Translations under genes and position numbers: made by a program | The notes under the pieces: model-generated | What the model saw: the letters and a program-made list of their open reading frames with translations, nothing else | What the model was told of the DNA's origin: nothing | Databases searched by the model: none | Shown here: positions 42,701 through 51,365 of the stretch, one piece after another | Layout: the number at the start of each line of letters is the position of its first letter | Numbering within the stretch: position 1 is the stretch's first letter | From: an uncultured Gammaproteobacteria bacterium | Lineage (GTDB): Bacteria; Pseudomonadota; Gammaproteobacteria; Francisellales; CACEW01 | Length of the DNA stretch: 64,000 nt | Assembly (NCBI GenBank): GCA_964539235.1 | Contig: CAZIIK010000050.1 | Coordinates: 160-64,159, forward strand | Direction: 5' to 3'

Positions 42701-43929
42701 CTACGTACCAGACTGCGTTTGCGTTTGCGTTGGCGCAGCAAACTCTGGTGCTCCAGCTGCCAACAATGCTGACAAGTCACCACCCAACGGCGGATAAATT
42801 CGATCTTGGTTAATATGACGCTTAAGTGTTTTGGCTACCAGGCCAATTTTCTGCGTTTTACGTACCCAGCCTTCAGTGTAGATACCACCCCATTCGCCTA
42901 GGTCAGCACATGTCACATAGTTTCGTTGTGCGTATGCCAACGACAGCTTACCCACCAAATTGGCAACCGCATTGTATCCGGCATAACGACCCTGCGGCCG
43001 ACCCTGTTGACAACTCATCACGGAGCCATGGTTTTCATCGACAGACACCAACGCCAGGTCGCCTGCCACGTAGATATTGGATTGCGTCGGCAATTGTAAA
43101 TATTGATTAACTGGCACACGCCCTAATGGATCCAAATTCTCTGCAAGCTGTTGGCCTAATGGGTGTGCTTGCAGACCCAGCGTTGAGATCGACATATCAA
43201 CGGCCAAAGTCTTCTCTGTGTTGTACGCCACCTCACCTGACCGCACTGCTGTTACAGTTGCCTGATCAATCGCTATGACACCAGACTGAGCCAATGCTGC
43301 TTGCACATGTACACTGGTATCGCCACCCAAACTATCGCGGACTTGATGACGGTCCAGTAAATAAACCGTCGGGGCCACCATCGGCAATTGATTTTTCTCA
43401 GCAATTTTCCGACACCACACAGGCAGTTCACAGGCCAGCTCAAGCCCAGTAATACCGGCGCCTAAAATCGCTAAGCAGCACGGCTGTTGCTGGCCGATTC
43501 TAGCAACATAGGTTTCTTCTAACGATCACGCAGCGCCATCGCAGCTGTATAAGTATCAATATTATGCGCCAGCTCTATGCCAGGAATCGGCGGCATGCTT
43601 AATCGACTGCCAGCTGCAACGACTAGCGCGTCAAAAGCCACCATATCACCGTCATCGCACGTCAATTGCTGCGCATCTGTATCAATATGCGTAACAGCAG
43701 CGTATTTAAGCTTCACGCATAAAGGCTGCAAAAAATCGGCCAACGGCACCTGTGTCTCTTCCAGTTCATACTCATAATAACGTGGCCGAATGCCCAAATA
43801 AGGCGATGGAATAATCAGTTGAACTTCAATGTCATGTACAGCCAAACGATGACACAGACTCGCCGCGGCTAGCGCCGCTGAACTGCCGGCATGACCGCCT
43901 CCAACAATACATACACGTCGCATAATCAT
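42701..43929 (-). pseudogene. NDH-2-like FAD-dependent pyridine nucleotide-disulfide oxidoreductase, frameshifted
   Basis: The N-terminal ORF (43519-43929; VCIVGGGHAGSSAA) ends at TAG 43519-43521. The second Rossmann motif (AILGAGITGLELACEL) and the rest continue in another frame that opens just after TGA 43526-43528. Confidence 0.75.
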
Positions 43930-43931
43930 GC

Positions 43932-45185
43932 CTACCCGAAATAATGTGTTGTGTTGATCTCGCGCAAGGTTTTGGTTTTTGAACGCATGACAATACTGTG
44001 CGTTTTTGCACCACCAGGGAATGTGCGTACGCCTTGTAACATCGTGCCAGTCGTCACACCCGTCGCTGCGAACATAATTTCACCATCTGCCAAATCATGC
44101 AGATAATATTTCTTCGCAAAGTCGGTAATACCATAACTCTGCGCACGCGTTTTTTCAGCCTCATGGAGAAATACCAAACGACCTTGCATTTGCCCACCGA
44201 TACAACGCAAAGCAGCAGCCGCCAATACACCTTCTGGCGCACCGCCTGTGCCAATATACATATCGATACCGCTATCAGGTTGCGCGGTTGCAATCACAGC
44301 TGAAACATCACCGTCATTAATAAGCGCAATACGTGCACCTGCTTCGCGTACTTCTTGGATAATAGTTTCGTGACGTGACCGGTCTAAAATACAAACAACT
44401 AAAGAACCAACCGTGGTTTTCTTAGCCTGCGCCAGGCTGTGCAAACTGTCCGCAACACTGGCATCTAAGTCGATCACATCAGAGCCTTCAACACCGGCCG
44501 CAATTTTTTGCATATAGGTATCGGGCGCATTTAAGAAACCATTGTGTTCCGCCATGGCAATCACCGCCAATGCATTCGGACCGCCTTTGGCTGTAATTGA
44601 AGTGCCTTCTAAAGGATCTAAAGCAATATCAACCTTGGGACCTTCCCCGCAACCAACCGGTTCACCAATATAAAGCATGGGGGCCTCATAGCGCTCACCC
44701 TCACCAATAACGACCGTGCCGTCAATATACAAACTATCAAAAGCCGTACGCATGGCATCAACAGCTGCCTGATCAGCCGCTTTTTCATCACCACTAAACG
44801 TCTGTTGATAGGCAAACGTACCACCCTTTATTTGACAAACATTATGATCGTTATTGACAACCATAACCCCATTCGCCTCGATAATTTCACCCGAGGCAAC
44901 TCGTACGGTGGATCCCGGATGGGTTACCCAGAAGTAAAAATGTGGATGATCAAAAAAGTCACCCGTGGTATCAACTGCATAGTCTTTGGACCAGTTGATA
45001 CCCGGAACAATAATCGGTGTTTGTGGCAATGTTGTTTCACCCGGGCTGGTATCGATACCGTCGAAAGCACCAAAATGATACGCCAAGGTACAACTTTGAC
45101 TATTTTCTATATTTATGGCCTTATGTGTCGCAGCGACTGCGGCACTGCTCGCCACGCATAAAAAGATCGCAATTGCACAAGCCAT
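43932..45185 (-). CDS. glpX: Class II fructose-1,6-bisphosphatase (GlpX) core with an unrelated signal-peptide-bearing N-terminal ~135 aa
   Basis: From GDEKAADQAAVDAMR onward it aligns with GlpX as I recall it (IGEGE..APMLYIGE, DPLEGT, GGAPEGV). The N-terminus MACAIAIFLCVASSAAVAATH... looks like a signal peptide followed by an unknown domain. Confidence 0.8.
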   Translation of the reverse strand: MACAIAIFLCVASSAAVAATHKAINIENSQSCTLAYHFGAFDGIDTSPGETTLPQTPIIVPGINWSKDYAVDTTGDFFDHPHFYFWVTHPGSTVRVASGEIIEANGVMVVNNDHNVCQIKGGTFAYQQTFSGDEKAADQAAVDAMRTAFDSLYIDGTVVIGEGERYEAPMLYIGEPVGCGEGPKVDIALDPLEGTSITAKGGPNALAVIAMAEHNGFLNAPDTYMQKIAAGVEGSDVIDLDASVADSLHSLAQAKKTTVGSLVVCILDRSRHETIIQEVREAGARIALINDGDVSAVIATAQPDSGIDMYIGTGGAPEGVLAAAALRCIGGQMQGRLVFLHEAEKTRAQSYGITDFAKKYYLHDLADGEIMFAATGVTTGTMLQGVRTFPGGAKTHSIVMRSKTKTLREINTTHYFG

Positions 45186-45398
45186 GGGACCGTAACATAG
45201 CGAACACCCTTTACAGAATAATTAATAAAAATATTGATATAATATATAGATATGTTTATTTTTCAACCAAAAATCCTCAGATATATTATTTATATAAATC
45301 ATGGCCTTGCTATTTGCATAAATCAGGGTAGAAGGCATCACGCTGCTATCGCACAATACTCAGGACCTATTCTTAAAATTGATTAGAGAATTACTGGT

Positions 45399-45730
45399 CT
45401 ATAGAGCAGCACCATCAAAATGATACACCTTAAGACGCGCCCAGTCGCAGTCGTCAAGCGCATGCAAATTTACTGTATGCTTCTGGAGATTAGGTGTTGG
45501 GCCATATATGAAAATGCCGCAATGTTTGCAGAAATAATGCTCACCTTTCATCTGATTAAACGTATAACGAGCCAAGCCCGCTTCACCCTCAACAATTTTA
45601 ATATCATCTACAACTGAATAACTGTGTGACGCTTACTACAGTACGAACAATTACATACAATCGGCTGTTTCAGCTCAAATTCACATTCAAACTTAACGCT
45701 TTGACAGTGACATGAACCTGTATATTTCAC
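45399..45730 (-). pseudogene. GFA (glutathione-dependent formaldehyde-activating/CENP-V) family gene, frameshifted
   Basis: My own minus-strand translation. GTG 45730 gives MKYTGSCHCQSVKFECEFELKQPIVCNCSYCSKRHTVIQL, then a stop at 45614-45616. A second frame gives ..YSVVDDIKIVEGEAGLARYTFNQMKGEHYFCKHCGIFIYG...FDGAAL, with a stop at 45399-45401. Confidence 0.6.
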
Positions 45731-46039
45731 CTTCACCCTCACTTATTGAAGCAAATGATAAAACCGAATAATAAGCACAAAACCATAAATAATAACCGCA
45801 ACCCGTGGCACCACACACGCAAAACAGTTTCATTCTAACTCGTCTGGTGAGTACTTTAATTAAAACAACAGCTCTCGGTTCAATCCGTCAATCAAAAAAA
45901 CAGTTCATCTTCAGACACCATAAACCACGTTACGCAAAGTACGCACCACAAAACATGGTGCGGCAATTCTTAAACCATGGACACTGATCCAATCACAACA
46001 AAAACACAGTAACGCAGAGTGAGGGAAAAAGACGCAGAA

Positions 46040-46129
<90 letters not shown>

Positions 46130-46142
46130 GTTTTACAAAATA

Positions 46143-46228
46143 TGGTGCCGGCGGACGGAGTCGAACCGTCACGGGCGATGCCCACCACCCCCTCAAGATG
46201 GCGTGTCTACCAATTCCACCACGTCGGC
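46143..46228 (-). tRNA. leuU: tRNA-Leu (anticodon GAG)
   Basis: 86 nt with acceptor GCCGACG, anticodon loop TTGAGGG, a long variable arm and an encoded CCA. It lies directly after secG, as in E. coli secG-leuU. Confidence 0.9.
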
Positions 46229-46230
46229 AA

Positions 46231-46671
46231 TTATTTTGTGGTCTTGTGCGAGAATGCCTGATAAGTTGATTTTACATCGGTACTTTTTAGCGACACCGGT
46301 GCATTCATATTTTGTGAAGTTGGCTTCTGACCAGCCTGCAAAGCTTGCAAACGTTTCTGCATCGAAGCAGGTTTCGCTACTTCCTTTTGCGCAACTGGTT
46401 TTGGTGCGACAGGCGCTGAAAGTGTTTGCTCTGCGGCAATATTACGATGTGCTAAATAACCTAACGACAAGCTGGTGACAAAAAACAAGGCAACCAAACC
46501 GCCGGTTAACTTCATCAAAAAGGATGCAGGTCCTCGGCTGCCGAACAGGGTGTTGGCACTGCCACTGCAAAATGCAGCGCCCATATCAGCGCCTTTGCCT
46601 TGCTGTAACAAGACCAACGCAACAATCGCAAGCGCGATAACAATATGGATAAACAGAATAATGCCAAGCAT
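46231..46671 (-). CDS. secG: Preprotein translocase subunit SecG (extended C-terminus)
   Basis: N-terminus [27 protein letters not shown] is SecG-like. A long low-complexity tail follows. The stop is 2 nt from the tRNA-Leu 5' end. Confidence 0.85.
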
Positions 46672-46788
46672 CTTTACAAAGAGTCCCCGTTTTGCAGGCG
46701 AACACCTTATACGATTTGATGCTTTTGCGCAATACTCCCAGAACGAGACCTGCTCTACATTAGAAACAAGGTTCAGCTCGCTTTTGGC

Positions 46789-48045
46789 TTATTGCAGTAC
46801 ATATAGTCCTAAGCTTTCAAACTGTTGAATGCGGTGCATATCTTGAGCGATTGCCTCTGCATTGCCCATCAACAAAAGATGCATGGGGCTGCTGGCATAG
46901 TCATGAGTCACTGCCAACCAATCACCCGGTTCTAGATAGGGTTTGACCCATCTCACCGTCGGCAAGTTTTGAATATCCTCTAGATAACGAAAAGCCTGGA
47001 GCTGACCAGATACCTGACTGCGTAACAGATACAATTTTGCTGACTGTTGCAAGGCATAATGTACAGATCGCTGTGCAAAGCGTTCTGGTTTTGCATAAGC
47101 TTCTATCATCACATCAAGCTGTGTTGCTGTTATACACTGCTGCAAATATTGGATTGGAAATAGGCCTCCCATCAAACGTGCGCCAAGTTCAACCAACACC
47201 GGACCATTTTTTGTCATGACAATATCGCTGGTGGTTGGGCCTTCTGTAATCGCCAGAGCTTGTAACACCTGCTCGATATACGCAATCAATTGTTTTTGCA
47301 CCGCACCTGTTGCCGGTAATAACTCAACCTGGTCATACAGAAAACGCCCCGCACCATCTACAACTTTAGTCATATCCCAGACATCAGTCACCACACAACG
47401 ACCGGCTCGACTGACGGTATTCACTCGATATTCGCGCCCGGTTAAAAAGCCTTCGGCCAACACGTGTTGATTTGAGATACCGCATTGATTTTGCTTACCT
47501 TGAATGCGCTGAAATGCTGCTTCAGCCGTTGCCACATCATGACAACGATAAACATCTTCCGCTGACGCACTGTTTAATGGCTTGAGCACCCAGGGACCTA
47601 GCGACTGTCTATCTAACCATACGGCCAACTCGCGCCAATCTGTTGCACATTTAAAAGACGGCACTTTCACCTGTGCCTGCACCAAAGCCAGACGCTGCTG
47701 GTATTTATCACAGCGGGCTGCACTCAATGCCGTACCATTGCCGGGCAAGTTAAAGGCCTCATTCAATTGATCAGCCAACGCAACGCCCATATCAAAACCC
47801 GCGCAGACATGTGTGATCGAATAGGGTGCTAACTGCTGTAGTAATTTCGCAAAGTCACCGTCGTACCACAGCGTCTCAACATAATCTTGGGCACAAATTG
47901 ACTGTTCATAGTAAGCGTGTAATTGACGCACTGTACGCACATGAACACAGCGATAACCCTGCGCATTAAAGGCTTTTACTAGACTTGCAGCTTGGGAATA
48001 AGCATCGACAATGACAATGGTATTCAGTTGATGTGAAGCAACCAT
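46789..48045 (-). CDS. ATP-grasp ligase, L-amino-acid-ligase-like
   Basis: 418 aa. The layout resembles BacD-type ligases: an N-terminal Rossmann-like part (TIVIVDAYSQAA), GPWVLKPLNSASAEDV, EGFLTGREYRVN and LVELGARLMGG. Confidence 0.7.
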   Translation of the reverse strand: MVASHQLNTIVIVDAYSQAASLVKAFNAQGYRCVHVRTVRQLHAYYEQSICAQDYVETLWYDGDFAKLLQQLAPYSITHVCAGFDMGVALADQLNEAFNLPGNGTALSAARCDKYQQRLALVQAQVKVPSFKCATDWRELAVWLDRQSLGPWVLKPLNSASAEDVYRCHDVATAEAAFQRIQGKQNQCGISNQHVLAEGFLTGREYRVNTVSRAGRCVVTDVWDMTKVVDGAGRFLYDQVELLPATGAVQKQLIAYIEQVLQALAITEGPTTSDIVMTKNGPVLVELGARLMGGLFPIQYLQQCITATQLDVMIEAYAKPERFAQRSVHYALQQSAKLYLLRSQVSGQLQAFRYLEDIQNLPTVRWVKPYLEPGDWLAVTHDYASSPMHLLLMGNAEAIAQDMHRIQQFESLGLYVLQ

Positions 48046-48057
48046 TTAAACGGATCC

Positions 48058-49179
48058 TTAGTGGGTTAAAGCCGCCTTGATCAAAGGGTCTAACACCCTG
48101 TATCTAGCCTGTTGATCTTTGAACACATAATCCTTTTCAAGTAAAAAGTTCATCGCGCGGTGGATGCTGGTAATGGGCATACTGGTTTCTTGTGCATACT
48201 CATGACTAAATGGGTTTTCCACATAATCTGCACTGGCTAAATGCAGCAGTAATCGTCGTTGATTTAGCTTCAACAGCATCGCTTCCTGTTCAACTCTGGC
48301 TTTATTCTCTTGGACATAATCCATCCATTCTTGCCGAATAGCTTCCGCCGTAGCTGGCTTAGGCAGTCTCAAAATCATGGAACAAAGTTTGTTAATGTAA
48401 TACGGATGGCGTTCTGTACACGCAAAAATAATGTCATATGCATCTTCTTTGAGCATGTCACCCCACCGATCTAGGCTGGCCTGCTTAATATGCTCGCTAT
48501 AATGTTTTGCAGAAATTCGATTTAATTGGATTTCATCGCACGCGTTAAAAAAAGACCTACTGTCATCGTGAAACATGCGCTCTATCAAGTGTCGGTTACT
48601 CCCTGCAAAAACATAGCGCACAGATTTTGATTTTTGCATGGCTTCTCTTATAGCCGACCCAATACTTTTATTCGGTGTAACTTCCGCCAGCGTTTGGAAT
48701 TCATCTAAGAACAGAATGCAGCCTGATATACCTGAGTGCTCAGTCACATAGTGATCGAGTTTTTCTAGGGCGGTCAAAATAAGGTCAACTGCACGTTTAG
48801 GACGCTGAGTAATTTCCAAGCTCAAATCTTTGCCATAAAGCGAGATATTAAGCTGCAGTGCACCAAAGAAATTACCCGCTGCTTTCAAAAGCTTTGTCGG
48901 TGTTTTCTCTGTTTGGCTGATGATTTTCCCAATACCATGCAAAATATATTGCGCAATTTCTTGTTCATTGAGTGCTTTATATAAATCAACATGTGCATAA
49001 GGCAGTTCAAGCTTTGAAAAAGCCTGTAATGCCAAACTTGTTTTGCCATAGCGTCTAGGCGATATCAGCAAAGATGGCGTGCCAGTTTCAAGATTATAAA
49101 TGAGGCGCTCGGTTTCAACGCTTCTATTGCAAAAAGCTTCCCGGGTCGCTACCATTGTTGGAAAATAATTTTTCGTCAT
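48058..49179 (-). CDS. ATPase_2 (archaeal-ATPase)-like P-loop NTPase with a C-terminal winged helix
   Basis: FCNRSVETERL, Walker A SPRRYGKTS, Walker B ILFLDEFQ, and a C-terminal wHTH-like tail. It lies 12 nt upstream of the ATP-grasp gene, with AAGGA as the RBS. Confidence 0.7.
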   Translation of the reverse strand: MTKNYFPTMVATREAFCNRSVETERLIYNLETGTPSLLISPRRYGKTSLALQAFSKLELPYAHVDLYKALNEQEIAQYILHGIGKIISQTEKTPTKLLKAAGNFFGALQLNISLYGKDLSLEITQRPKRAVDLILTALEKLDHYVTEHSGISGCILFLDEFQTLAEVTPNKSIGSAIREAMQKSKSVRYVFAGSNRHLIERMFHDDSRSFFNACDEIQLNRISAKHYSEHIKQASLDRWGDMLKEDAYDIIFACTERHPYYINKLCSMILRLPKPATAEAIRQEWMDYVQENKARVEQEAMLLKLNQRRLLLHLASADYVENPFSHEYAQETSMPITSIHRAMNFLLEKDYVFKDQQARYRVLDPLIKAALTH

Positions 49180-49203
49180 ACGCGCGGTTTAATCCTCAAA
49201 GTG

Positions 49204-49280
49204 AGATACGCAAAATGTAATACGCAAAAAGCGTATTGTCAATTCCGTTTGGGGCCCTATATCGGCAATATCTCGAGATA
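49204..49280. promoter_or_regulatory. Palindromes and direct repeats upstream of the ATPase/ATP-grasp operon
   Basis: ATACGCAAAA appears twice (49206-49215, 49219-49228). The palindrome AATACGC-aaaaa-GCGTATT spans about 49218-49236. A perfect 12-bp palindrome TATCTCGAGATA lies at 49269-49280. Confidence 0.35.
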
Positions 49281-49477
49281 ATCGTGAGCGCTGAAGACCC
49301 GAGAAATGCTGCTGCATCATTTAAGTAGCATTTGAAGAAGATTCTAACGATGAGGTTCGCGACTCATGAGGTGATGCAACGGTATTTGAGAATAAGCAGC
49401 GACAATACAATTCCTTGATACCAGCTCAGAAAAATTGTTCAATCACAAGGCAAGTAATACTAAGGAAGGATCATTAT

Positions 49478-49774
49478 ATGCTAGCAGGTCATCGCCTAGA
49501 AGAATGGCAGCAACTGCTTAATTTATATGGCGAACACATGAAATGGGGCCCTGAATTCATCAACTGTATGTTGGATTCCTTGATTGAGACAGGTGACTCG
49601 CTAAACCCAGCAGATCAAGAAGTGCTCAATTTTCAATGGCAGAATATGACAGCTGCCATTACCGGAAAACCTGTTTGCGAACCATCGCTGCCGTTGTTAG
49701 GCCACATGATCAATCGGGGTGATGCGCATAAGGCAGAATATCAGCAATCAACCAGTCCTGCTGGGGTAAAATAG
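49478..49774 (+). CDS. Hypothetical small protein
   Basis: 98 aa from ATG 49478, preceded by AAGGAAGGA. I recognise no family. Its 3' end overlaps the convergent SDR gene by 34 nt. Confidence 0.35.
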   Translation: MLAGHRLEEWQQLLNLYGEHMKWGPEFINCMLDSLIETGDSLNPADQEVLNFQWQNMTAAITGKPVCEPSLPLLGHMINRGDAHKAEYQQSTSPAGVK

Positions 49775-50457
49775 CCATCGGCACTGTCTAACAAGAGCCA
49801 ACGCAAACCTGTCGCGACCTCAGCAGGTGACAATAATTGATCATTGGCTTTTAGGTCCTGGAAAAAACCACTCACCGGAAGATCTTCAGCATCAGCAGCG
49901 CGCAATTTGTTTTGCATCGGTGTATCGACGGTGCCAGGTCGCACACTACCAAACAGCACAGCGCTGTCAGCATAATCAGCCTGGCAAACCAAATATGCCA
50001 TATGTAATGCTGCCTTGCTGATGCAGTACGCCGCCATGCCAGACAAAGCACGATGTGCCAAGCCACTGGAAATATGCAACACACGCCCACGGGTCATTAA
50101 CGGCACCAATTGCTGGGTGAGAAACAACGGTGCTTCGACATTGACAGCTTGTGCTTGGCGCCACTGCTCCAAATCAAGTGTTTGCAAAGGCTTTAACGGT
50201 TTAACCAATGCCGCATTATGCACGATGTACTGTAAATCACCGTGTGCTTTGACAGCTTTAACCAGTATGTCTCGACCTGCTGCTGTACCCACATCCGCGA
50301 CAACCGTGTGAATCTGTTCAGGATAACGTTGCTGGGTCTGAGCTAAAGTGTCCGCTGTACGACCAGCGACTATGACGCGTAGACCACGCTCAGCTAACGC
50401 CCGCGCTAACGCCTGACCAATTCCAGAACCACCACCGGTAATTAAAGCTGTTTTCAT
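49741..50457 (-). CDS. Short-chain dehydrogenase/reductase (SDR)
   Basis: A start at 50457 gives MKTALITGGGSGIGQALA. The catalytic YCISK is present. The track start at 50523 is rejected. Confidence 0.85.
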   Translation of the reverse strand: MKTALITGGGSGIGQALARALAERGLRVIVAGRTADTLAQTQQRYPEQIHTVVADVGTAAGRDILVKAVKAHGDLQYIVHNAALVKPLKPLQTLDLEQWRQAQAVNVEAPLFLTQQLVPLMTRGRVLHISSGLAHRALSGMAAYCISKAALHMAYLVCQADYADSAVLFGSVRPGTVDTPMQNKLRAADAEDLPVSGFFQDLKANDQLLSPAEVATGLRWLLLDSADGYFTPAGLVDC

Positions 50458-50474
50458 GATCTTTCTCCCATCAT

Positions 50475-51365
50475 TTAAGTCGCCGCAACCGCAGTTTTGA
50501 TACAGTCCATAATGTGCTGACAAGCGGCTTTTTTAGCAGAACTGGTACGCCATAACATGCCAATCTGGCGATGTGGCGCTGGCGCTGTAAAAGTCTGCAG
50601 CGCAACCTCTGGCGTATTAACTGTATCGGCTACCAATTTGGGTAGTAAGGTAATGCCTTCACCCAATGCAACCATCTGGATCAACATCGACAAACTCGTC
50701 CCTTGATAACGCGCATGATCGGGATTGCGAATGTGTTGGCAAACAGACAACGCATGGTCTTTCAAACAATGGCCCTCGCCCAATAACAGTAATTCATCGA
50801 CCGAGACTGCGTCGATGGTTAGGGTGTCTTGCGCGGCTAAAGCATGGTCTTTTGGCACTGCCAACACAAAATCTTCTTCGAATAATGGCCGGCAGATAAA
50901 GTCGTCGATTCCAGCAACCGGTAATGCCAATAAAATCGCATCCAACTGCCCTTGCTTGAGCTGGGTAATCAGGGTATGCGTCTGCATTTCTTGTAGCTGA
51001 AAGCGCAAATTGGGCAATTGCTGTTTAAAGTACGGTAACACCCGCGGCAGTAAATAAGGCCCTAATGTCGGAATTGCACCAAGATGAAACGTGCCACTCA
51101 ACGGCGCGCGAATTTGTTGCGCCAATACGGTTAATGCCTCAATGTCTTGCAAAACCACGCGCGCCTGCGCAATCACTTGCTCACCAGCAGAAGTCGGCAT
51201 GACATGTTTGGGTTGGCGTTCAAACAACTGCAAACCCAGCGTTTCTTCTAACTTTTTCAGTTGCATACTTAAGGTCGGTTGACTCACATGGCACCGTTCC
51301 GCAGCACGGCCAAAACGCTGTAAATCGGCAACGGCAACCAGATATTGCAAATCTTTGATATTCAT
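50475..51365 (-). CDS. oxyR: LysR-family regulator, OxyR-like
   Basis: The HTH is RAAERCHVSQPTLSMQLKKLE. The redox Cys pair has OxyR spacing (GHCLKDHALSVC, C-x8-C). Confidence 0.8.
   Translation of the reverse strand: MNIKDLQYLVAVADLQRFGRAAERCHVSQPTLSMQLKKLEETLGLQLFERQPKHVMPTSAGEQVIAQARVVLQDIEALTVLAQQIRAPLSGTFHLGAIPTLGPYLLPRVLPYFKQQLPNLRFQLQEMQTHTLITQLKQGQLDAILLALPVAGIDDFICRPLFEEDFVLAVPKDHALAAQDTLTIDAVSVDELLLLGEGHCLKDHALSVCQHIRNPDHARYQGTSLSMLIQMVALGEGITLLPKLVADTVNTPEVALQTFTAPAPHRQIGMLWRTSSAKKAACQHIMDCIKTAVAAT

Follow-up and report, generated by a model that had tools for sequence, protein, structure and literature searches.

L-amino acid ligases, among which BacD (YwfE), RizA and BL00235 have DdaF and TabS as relatives, are ATP-grasp enzymes, and those of the BacD/RizA type form dipeptides. 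In the bacilysin operon the ligase gene bacD stands next to bacC, which encodes a short-chain dehydrogenase/reductase (SDR). The archaeal-type ATPases (PF01637/PF13173), represented by the structures 2fna and 2qen, combine an AAA+ core with a lid and a winged helix, an architecture related to that of Orc1/Cdc6; to our knowledge, no function has been reported for this ATPase/winged-helix family. A ligase-type gene and an ATPase gene of these two kinds lie side by side at positions 46,789 to 49,280 of the DNA studied here, a 64,000-nucleotide (nt) stretch (hereafter 'the window') from an uncultured Gammaproteobacteria bacterium (Francisellales, CACEW01; assembly GCA_964539235.1, contig CAZIIK010000050.1).

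The original prediction for this locus, made from the window sequence, read the two genes as a dedicated system in which a nucleotide-sensing regulator controls the synthesis of a small peptide or modified amino acid. A survey of both families in other genomes leads us to a different reading: the locus is probably a lineage-specific juxtaposition of two independent units, a self-regulated ATPase module and a ligase. The evidence comes from the gene neighbourhoods of the two families, from a predicted operator that accompanies the ATPase gene across lineages, and from the one close ligase relative found outside the source species.

Results

Linkage of the two gene families

Linkage was examined by family profile searches over loci with up to 6 kb of flanking DNA on each side. 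The ligase-family profile gave no match within 6 kb in any of 83 loci with an ATPase homologue, and the ATPase-family profile gave none in 84 loci with a ligase homologue. These counts (0/83 and 0/84) contradict the idea of a dedicated system pairing both families, for which the original prediction had itself named absence of linkage in other genomes as the adverse outcome. The pair is common only to three near-identical strains of the same species, and on the gene neighbourhoods compared it appears to be a one-species juxtaposition, not a conserved two-part system. One metagenome-assembled genome (MAG), OFTM325, contains members of both families, on separate contigs (L054 and L123). A scan of contigs with NusA for syntenic relatives of the source genome found none.

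The protein search returned 491 ATPase homologues, and 480 stretches were confirmed in genomes that represent species; most belong to Coxiellaceae, Legionellales, Francisellaceae, Thiotrichales and unclassified gammaproteobacterial MAGs. The closest relatives of the window protein (64, 61, 55 and 54% identity) lie in unrelated contexts, clustering of neighbours over the ATPase loci gave no recurrent partner besides paralogous ATPases, and in none of the loci examined elsewhere does an SDR or ligase gene flank the ATPase homologue. Of 78 loci, 37 have a gene of the other strand next downstream of the ATPase, and 18 have a same-strand gene within 60 nt; all ten of the latter that were inspected are unrelated, seven being housekeeping genes (rsmG, thyA, dinB, and genes for a SulP permease, an epimerase, an enoyl-CoA hydratase and a RadA-like protein) and three having no Pfam match.

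Two or three ATPase paralogues are found in several MAGs, in some cases in tandem (L008, at 3864 and 5968; L039, L057, L060, L065 and L071; multi-copy genomes include CSMAG_1456, RIFCSPHIGHO2_12_FULL_36_30 and MFD04463.bin.2.67). In L050, L051, L058 and L060, ATPase homologues about 31% identical to the window protein adjoin a phage-type replication initiator (phrog_16167, 224 bits) as well as a conserved PHROG protein without an assigned function, which suggests a prophage or integrative-element context for this subclade. Another homologue, P0038 (439 amino acids, aa), has an N-terminal HTH_3/XRE domain and bears the source name 'HigA family antidote', a fusion that hints at a link to toxin-antitoxin-style regulation.

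The ATPase and its predicted operator

The 373-aa protein belongs to the archaeal SSO1545/PABY2304 type: it is predicted to consist of an AAA+ core, a lid and a C-terminal winged helix. Its Walker A (SPRRYGKTS, with GKTS at residues 45-48) and Walker B (ILFLDEFQ, with DE at 159-160) motifs are both invariant in the family, whose alignment also contains an N-terminal F-x-[ND]-R-x-x-E motif; the subfamily is tight, with a mean column identity of 57%. Pfam AAA_14 matches the protein with 30.3 bits (cut-off 27), over only part of the profile, and ATPase_2 with 24.3 bits, under its cut-off of 33.2; most homologues have precomputed matches to both. The sequence match to 2fna (SSO1545) is weak (E 2.6e-5). 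In the AlphaFold2 (AF2) model (predicted local distance difference test, pLDDT, 87.8; predicted template-modelling score, pTM, 0.84), helices at 305-348 precede a beta-hairpin at 352-362, and the predicted recognition helix spans residues ~336-348 (TSIHRAMNFLLEK). Foldseek matched the model over its full length to 2fna and 2qen (PABY2304) with template-modelling (TM) scores of 0.66-0.73, followed by archaeal Orc/Cdc6, RuvB and, more weakly, Apaf-1/NLR. An ATPase_2-like NTPase with a winged helix-turn-helix (HTH) domain, as originally described, is what the AAA_14 match, the sub-threshold ATPase_2 match and the two folds also point to.

Upstream of the gene, TTGACA-17-TACATT is the sole sigma-70-like promoter match at 10 of 12 positions within 45900-50600, and the coding-strand DNA reads TTGACA-ATACGC-TTTTT-GCGTAT-TACATTTT-GCGTAT. 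The duplicated element and the AATACGC/GCGTATT palindrome that had been noted in the promoter region are both there, within the sole strong promoter: ATACGCAAAA occurs twice, at 49206-49215 and 49220-49229; AATACGC-N5-GCGTATT lies at 49219-49237, inside the promoter spacer; and a third half-site, TTTTGCGTAT, is found 14 nt downstream, at 49206-49215. The exact ATACGC-N5-GCGTAT is a single site in the 64 kb, where matches with up to two mismatches occur at chance frequency.

This arrangement is conserved well beyond the source species. TTGACA-nTACGC-N5-TGCGTA-N7/8-TGCGTA is invariant in nine lineages with 47-64% protein identity to the window ATPase, and the operator segment is the only part of the 620-nt upstream region that is similar to those loci (80-87% identity); the DNA upstream of the promoter has no similarity to ATPase loci, and an Rfam search gave no non-coding RNA family for the spacer that separates the promoter from the SDR gene. 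Across the family, 66% of 56 upstream regions, vs 10% of dinucleotide shuffles, contain a perfect palindrome whose arms measure 7 nt or more, and its centre usually falls 30-60 nt ahead of the start codon. In 17 of the 56 regions, vs 1 of 280 shuffles, there are strong direct repeats, and in every such region their period is 14 or 15 nt; the upstream DNA of family members includes arrays of two to four units with a 14-nt period.

Subclades differ in their operator, and each operator class is paired with its own predicted recognition helix: TSIHRAM with TACGC-N5-GCGTA, ATIDQSL with ATGGTCTATA..TATAGACCAT, SSSASQA with TTCATAAAATATGAA, ATISQSL or SSISQT with GTCATAnAATATGAC, and TPRAVIKAV with GGTATTATACC. 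Such co-variation is the hallmark of a DNA-binding protein and an operator that evolve together. The suggestion of the original prediction that the winged-helix protein regulates its own gene is thus well supported, by a predicted operator that is invariant in nine lineages and co-varies with the recognition helix; such autoregulation would be a property of the ATPase gene alone. A literature search by Pfam and Protein Data Bank (PDB) names returned irrelevant matches only, and no description of an operator at the promoters of ATPase-family genes.

Two further loci bear on these sites. For L008, the upstream DNA of each of the two ATPase copies was read, and the copies differ in operator class: a TACGC-type stands beside a GTCATA-type. 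In L003 (MAG Co_bin_819, CBFIHN010000027.1), a second complete operator, TACGCATATTGCGTA with an upstream half-site TTACGCAAA, lies at ~2219-2260, just past the ATPase stop codon and ~230 nt upstream of a PAP2 phosphatase gene; the ATPase may regulate this neighbour as well as itself in that genome.

The perfect 12-bp palindrome that had been listed beside these elements is present at 49269-49280 (TATCTCGAGATA), while its proposed regulatory role does not stand: the window contains 25 such palindromes, vs 13-26 in shuffles, and this one is not conserved in the relatives.

The ligase and its neighbours

The 418-aa protein matches Pfam ATP-grasp_4 (33.5 bits, cut-off 27) and ATP-grasp_3 (28.5 bits, cut-off 23.2) and NCBIfam PRK07206 (311 bits, cut-off 302); Pfam LAL_C2 is weak (18 bits, below its cut-off of 29.4), and the equivalog model for DdaF (dapdiamide A synthase) gives 224 bits, vs a cut-off of 840. 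A PDB 'L-amino acid ligase' aligns with residues 7-410 (E 3e-49), BL00235 and RizA giving weaker alignments. The AF2 model (pLDDT 93.2) has RizA, BL00235 and YwfE/BacD as its top Foldseek matches (TM 0.70-0.78), ahead of PurD and PurK, and K155, E286, R290 and G293, at the Lys/Glu/Arg/Gly positions of ATP-grasp enzymes, are invariant in the family alignment. Profile, sequence and fold thus agree in predicting an intact amide ligase of the L-amino acid ligase type. The resemblance to dipeptide ligases of the BacD/RizA type noted originally is supported by the predicted fold, RizA, BL00235 and BacD being the best matches, and classification by hidden Markov model and structure, proposed at the time as a check, places the protein above the ATP-grasp_4 cut-off with an L-amino-acid-ligase-like fold. 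No orthology to a ligase of primary metabolism was found: NCBIfam models for PurD, Ddl, RimK and cyanophycin synthetase score the protein at noise level, with at most 24 bits, vs cut-offs of 143-850.

Close relatives of the ligase are few. The protein search returned a 99% identical strain variant, one relative at 53% identity (P0122, on contig L001) and otherwise sequences at 37% or less; a scan of genome contigs with the ligase protein alone gave no match, and metagenome scans for close relatives found none. The protein is a new, divergent member of the L-amino acid ligase family, in a rare clade of two lineages. The 27 ligase sequences that were aligned are too divergent for a pattern scan. 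Of the 24 differences that separate strain L090 from the window, 10 fall in the ligase gene, which accounts for only a fifth of the length compared; six of the 10 are synonymous and four non-synonymous, which indicates purifying selection on the ligase in the strains compared. Three of the four non-synonymous changes are grouped at codons 343-350.

In L001, a single nucleotide separates the stop codon of an SDR gene from the start of the ligase gene (P0122; TAA-C-ATG). No ATPase gene lies between them, and this SDR is 65% identical to the SDR encoded at 49741-50457 of the window. The window differs by 1.7 kb between SDR and ligase, comprising the ATPase gene with its promoter as well as ~500 nt of DNA that is not conserved. 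Outer flanks also differ, with coaD-yfhL and ubiX in L001 and, in the window, gmk and an OxyR-like LysR gene on one side and secG on the other.

More distant ligase homologues neighbour a methyltransferase and an aldehyde dehydrogenase gene, a gene for a major facilitator superfamily (MFS) exporter, or a biosynthetic-looking actinobacterial cluster. In L123 (4983-7494, OFTM325), a gammaproteobacterial ligase homologue at 34% identity overlaps a downstream MFS transporter gene by 17 nt, a pair reminiscent, by analogy, of bacD-bacE.

The window and L088 share one extra C in the C-run at 49763-49766 relative to L089 and L090. The frame of L089 and L090 gives the SDR the tail FTQQDWLIADILPYAHHPD, which matches orthologue tails (FTEKDWRIEQLPD); the 238-aa SDR of the window is accordingly frameshifted at its end, with the conserved tail cut short, by either a real mutation or a homopolymer assembly error. 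That an insertion replaced the last codons of the SDR was considered and rejected: the sister-strain frame restores an orthologue-like tail, so that the window differs by a 1-nt indel.

A proposed model of two juxtaposed units

The same gene order is present in three independent assemblies, 99.6-99.97% identical over 6.1 kb, so the arrangement of ATPase and ligase is not an assembly artefact. SDR, ATPase, ligase, secG, tRNA-Leu and tRNA-Ser genes follow each other 5' to 3' on one strand. A sequence scan found neither a promoter-like nor a terminator-like site in the ATPase-ligase junction, and the 117-nt spacer between ligase and secG has no terminator-like site and no significant RNA structure (z -1.3).

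In the model that we favour, one unit would be a single-gene AAA+/winged-helix ATPase that brings its own promoter and operator along. The ATPase, in dimeric or higher oligomeric form, most likely binds AATACGC-N5-GCGTATT together with the half-site 14 nt downstream; these sites cover the promoter spacer and the -10 element, so that binding would repress transcription of the ATPase gene itself, and bound nucleotide presumably tunes DNA binding or oligomerisation. The other unit would be the ligase, which would form an amide bond via an acyl-phosphate intermediate and would have kept the SDR gene as its sole neighbour. Between these two genes, the ATPase module and ~500 nt of DNA would have been placed, probably by insertion or rearrangement. 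Because the 12-nt junction has no promoter or terminator, and the spacer before secG has none and no stable structure, the ligase is most likely co-transcribed from the ATPase promoter, or else reached by read-through of the upstream SDR operon, and secG and the two tRNA genes are possibly read through as well. Control of the ligase by the ATPase would then be only a by-product of promoter sharing. DNA binding, repression, co-transcription and the direction of rearrangement are in each case what we infer from sequence patterns.

Insertion in the window lineage is in our judgement favoured over loss of the ATPase in L001, although the comparison involves two lineages only: SDR and ligase in L001 meet at a 1-nt junction, the spacer in the window is unconserved and decaying, and members of the ATPase family habitually precede arbitrary genes.

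Several observations weigh against this interpretation. With the ligase clade limited to two lineages, insertion in the window and loss in L001 are formally equally parsimonious. A tight 12-nt spacing with a good ribosome-binding site (RBS) would also be expected of a selected operon. Foreign origin of the ATPase gene is weakly supported by composition (GC 0.417, z -1.9; GC at third codon positions, GC3, z -1.0). As for the SDR, its family is widespread, a broad gammaproteobacterial orthologue group mostly without a ligase, and in a relative of L001 the SDR gene is followed by a 50-nt spacer with a promoter-like site and then by the contig end; the coupling of SDR and ligase is accordingly itself weakly supported.

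Alternative explanations

The alternative that survives best, which we nevertheless consider unlikely, makes the ATPase mainly a mobile or conflict-related NTPase, a minimal STAND- or Orc/Cdc6-like sensor active in addiction or defence, whose sites serve as an assembly platform with self-repression as housekeeping. It would account for the variable contexts of the family, for its multiple and tandem copies, some of them beside phage-type replication initiators, and for the homologue fused to a HigA-like HTH domain; the iteron-like arrays of two to four units at a 14-nt period, a weak PHROG match, and a fold nearest to SSO1545/PABY2304 and then to Orc/Cdc6, with Apaf-1/NLR among the weaker matches, are in keeping with it. 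Against this, PADLOC models matched none of ATPase, ligase, SDR and orphan open reading frame (ORF) in the window, neither an effector domain nor a conserved partner gene was found, and the neighbours are mostly housekeeping genes. The window copy lacks a flanking integrase, transposase or terminal repeats, and the direct and inverted repeats found around it are short and at chance level.

A second alternative, in which SDR, ATPase and ligase formed an ancestral unit, with the ATPase as an old, functional regulator of a pathway of SDR and ligase, and the L001 lineage lost the ATPase by deletion, is improbable. Two lineages cannot fix the direction of change, and the three genes do share one strand, the gaps between them showing no terminator-like site; however, the TAA-C-ATG junction of L001 would be an unlikely product of a 1.7-kb deletion, the ~500 nt between SDR and ATPase is unconserved DNA with a decaying ORF, and ATPase homologues elsewhere are never flanked by SDR or ligase.

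Least probable of all, and as a conserved system close to refuted, is the dedicated two-gene system with the ATPase as an evolved, nucleotide-sensing regulator of the ligase: the 12-nt gap with AAGGA, the shared strand, the single promoter with its operator, the retention in three strains and the intact ligase under apparent purifying selection are what it would lead one to expect, but the two families co-occur in none of the 83 and 84 loci, the three strains, at least 99.6% identical, carry no independent weight, the same operator architecture stands at ATPase genes with no downstream cargo or with unrelated housekeeping genes after them, and the nearest ligase orthologue does without an ATPase.

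Layout of the locus and neighbouring genes

Coordinates are collected in Table 1. As originally described, the 373-aa P-loop/winged-helix and 418-aa ATP-grasp ORFs, the Walker motifs, the 12-nt gap and the AAGGA motif are all present, and secG does follow the pair, at 46231-46671, 117 nt past the ligase.

Table 1. Genes, spacers and predicted regulatory sites at the ATPase-ligase locus (window positions).
Feature	Position	Strand	Remarks
SDR oxidoreductase gene	49741-50457	(-)	Pfam adh_short, 132 bits; true start MKTALITGGG
Orphan ORF	49478-49774	(+)	98 aa; ORF call
Unconserved spacer, SDR to ATPase promoter	49243-49740		~500 nt; includes orphan ORF and the chance-level 12-bp palindrome
Sigma-70-like promoter of ATPase gene	49214-49242	(-)	TTGACA 49242-49237, 17-nt spacer, TACATT 49219-49214
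Operator (predicted)	49204-49237	(-)	inverted repeat and third half-site; spans promoter spacer and -10
ATPase-winged HTH gene	48058-49179	(-)	373 aa; ORF call
Candidate RBS of ligase, AAGGA	48055-48059	(-)	overlaps ATPase stop codon
ATPase/ligase junction	48046-48057	(-)	12 nt
L-amino-acid-ligase-type ATP-grasp gene	46789-48045	(-)	418 aa; ORF call
Spacer, ligase to secG			117 nt; same strand
secG	46231-46671	(-)	SecG Pfam and TIGR00810 matches
tRNA-Leu(GAG)	46143-46228	(-)	tRNA scan
tRNA-Ser(UGA)	46042-46129	(-)	tRNA scan

The divergent 98-aa ORF had been thought possibly to belong to the same unit. It is indeed present, yet a search of 1.84 billion representative proteins returned only the ORF itself, no match came from Pfam, NCBIfam, PHROG or PADLOC, and codon 19 changes from GAA to TAA in sister strain L090, where the gene caller omits it; it also overlaps, on the opposite strand, the conserved tail of the SDR. 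The lack of homologues and the stop codon led us to reject it as a gene and as a member of the unit.

Further along the window, the Pyr_redox_2 gene at 42701-43929 (-) is split into ORFs of 136 and 239 aa, vs one 407-aa gene in L089 and ORFs of 336 and 71 aa in L088, which points to pseudogenisation or assembly frameshifts in the source genome. The glpX ORF at 43932-45185 (-) encodes 417 aa, and the FBPase_glpX profile matches residues 125-414 alone; the 124 residues ahead of them have a signal-peptide-like start (MACAIAIFLCVASSAAVA) and no Pfam match, and the call in L089 is only 273 aa. From glpX to tRNA-Ser, 857 nt without a convincing gene (45186-46041) are unusually long for this compact window; a 58-aa ORF within them (45399-45575) was considered as a remnant of the GFA family and set aside for want of a Pfam match.

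Discussion

Our analysis suggests that what looks like a tight 'operon' joining a peptide ligase to an NTPase regulator is a one-species accident, and it illustrates how adjacency alone can mislead. What it leaves on the ligase side is a rare, divergent clade in gammaproteobacteria of host-associated type, with the SDR gene as the sole neighbour that the clade appears to have kept. For the widespread ATPase/winged-helix family, the promoter operator, the 14-nt periodic sites and the co-variation of helix and operator together provide a testable hypothesis about its DNA target.

A broader interpretation is possible, although we regard it as rather doubtful. The ATPase genes may be a class of single-gene, self-operated modules, in which co-evolution of recognition helix and operator insulates paralogues from one another, nucleotide-dependent assembly on the operator works as a sensor or switch (addiction-, defence- or initiator-like) and not as an ordinary repressor, and downstream host genes are taken over wherever a module comes to rest. 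If so, such modules would be scattered through Legionellales/Coxiellaceae-like bacteria, sometimes in multiple copies and sometimes on prophage-like elements, and transcription of the window ligase, possibly with that of secG and two tRNA genes, would have been captured by an ATPase module that landed in front of them.

Comparison with known systems

With the L-amino acid ligases (BacD/YwfE, RizA and BL00235, and the relatives DdaF and TabS), the window ligase shares homology over its full length, the fold and the Lys/Glu/Arg/Gly motifs. It differs in being at most 37% identical to anything outside its own two-lineage clade, and in its setting among housekeeping genes of a small-genome gammaproteobacterium, not in a biosynthetic cluster. 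The bacC-bacD pair of the bacilysin operon offers a possible analogy: an SDR gene lies directly upstream of the ligase-type gene in L001, and in the window with the ATPase interposed. The similarity of the window SDR to BacC is generic only (5itv, E 2.7e-15; a further 228 SDR sequences match at E 1e-10 or below), and the other bac genes are absent.

Orc1/Cdc6 proteins resemble the window ATPase in having an AAA+ base, a lid and a winged helix, and in the repeated elements beside their own gene (Foldseek E ~1e-8 to 1e-9). The TM scores are only 0.42-0.55, however, and the sites of the window ATPase overlap a sigma-70 promoter, not an origin; genomes can carry several copies of its gene at arbitrary chromosomal places, and nothing points to a role in replication. 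Closest to the window ATPase are the archaeal-type ATPases (PF01637/PF13173; 2fna and 2qen), which have the same domain order and fold over the full length. Sequence similarity to them is only marginal, and the window protein belongs to a bacterial subfamily of its own, found mainly in Legionellales/Coxiellaceae-like MAGs and distinguished by a conserved predicted operator at its own promoter.

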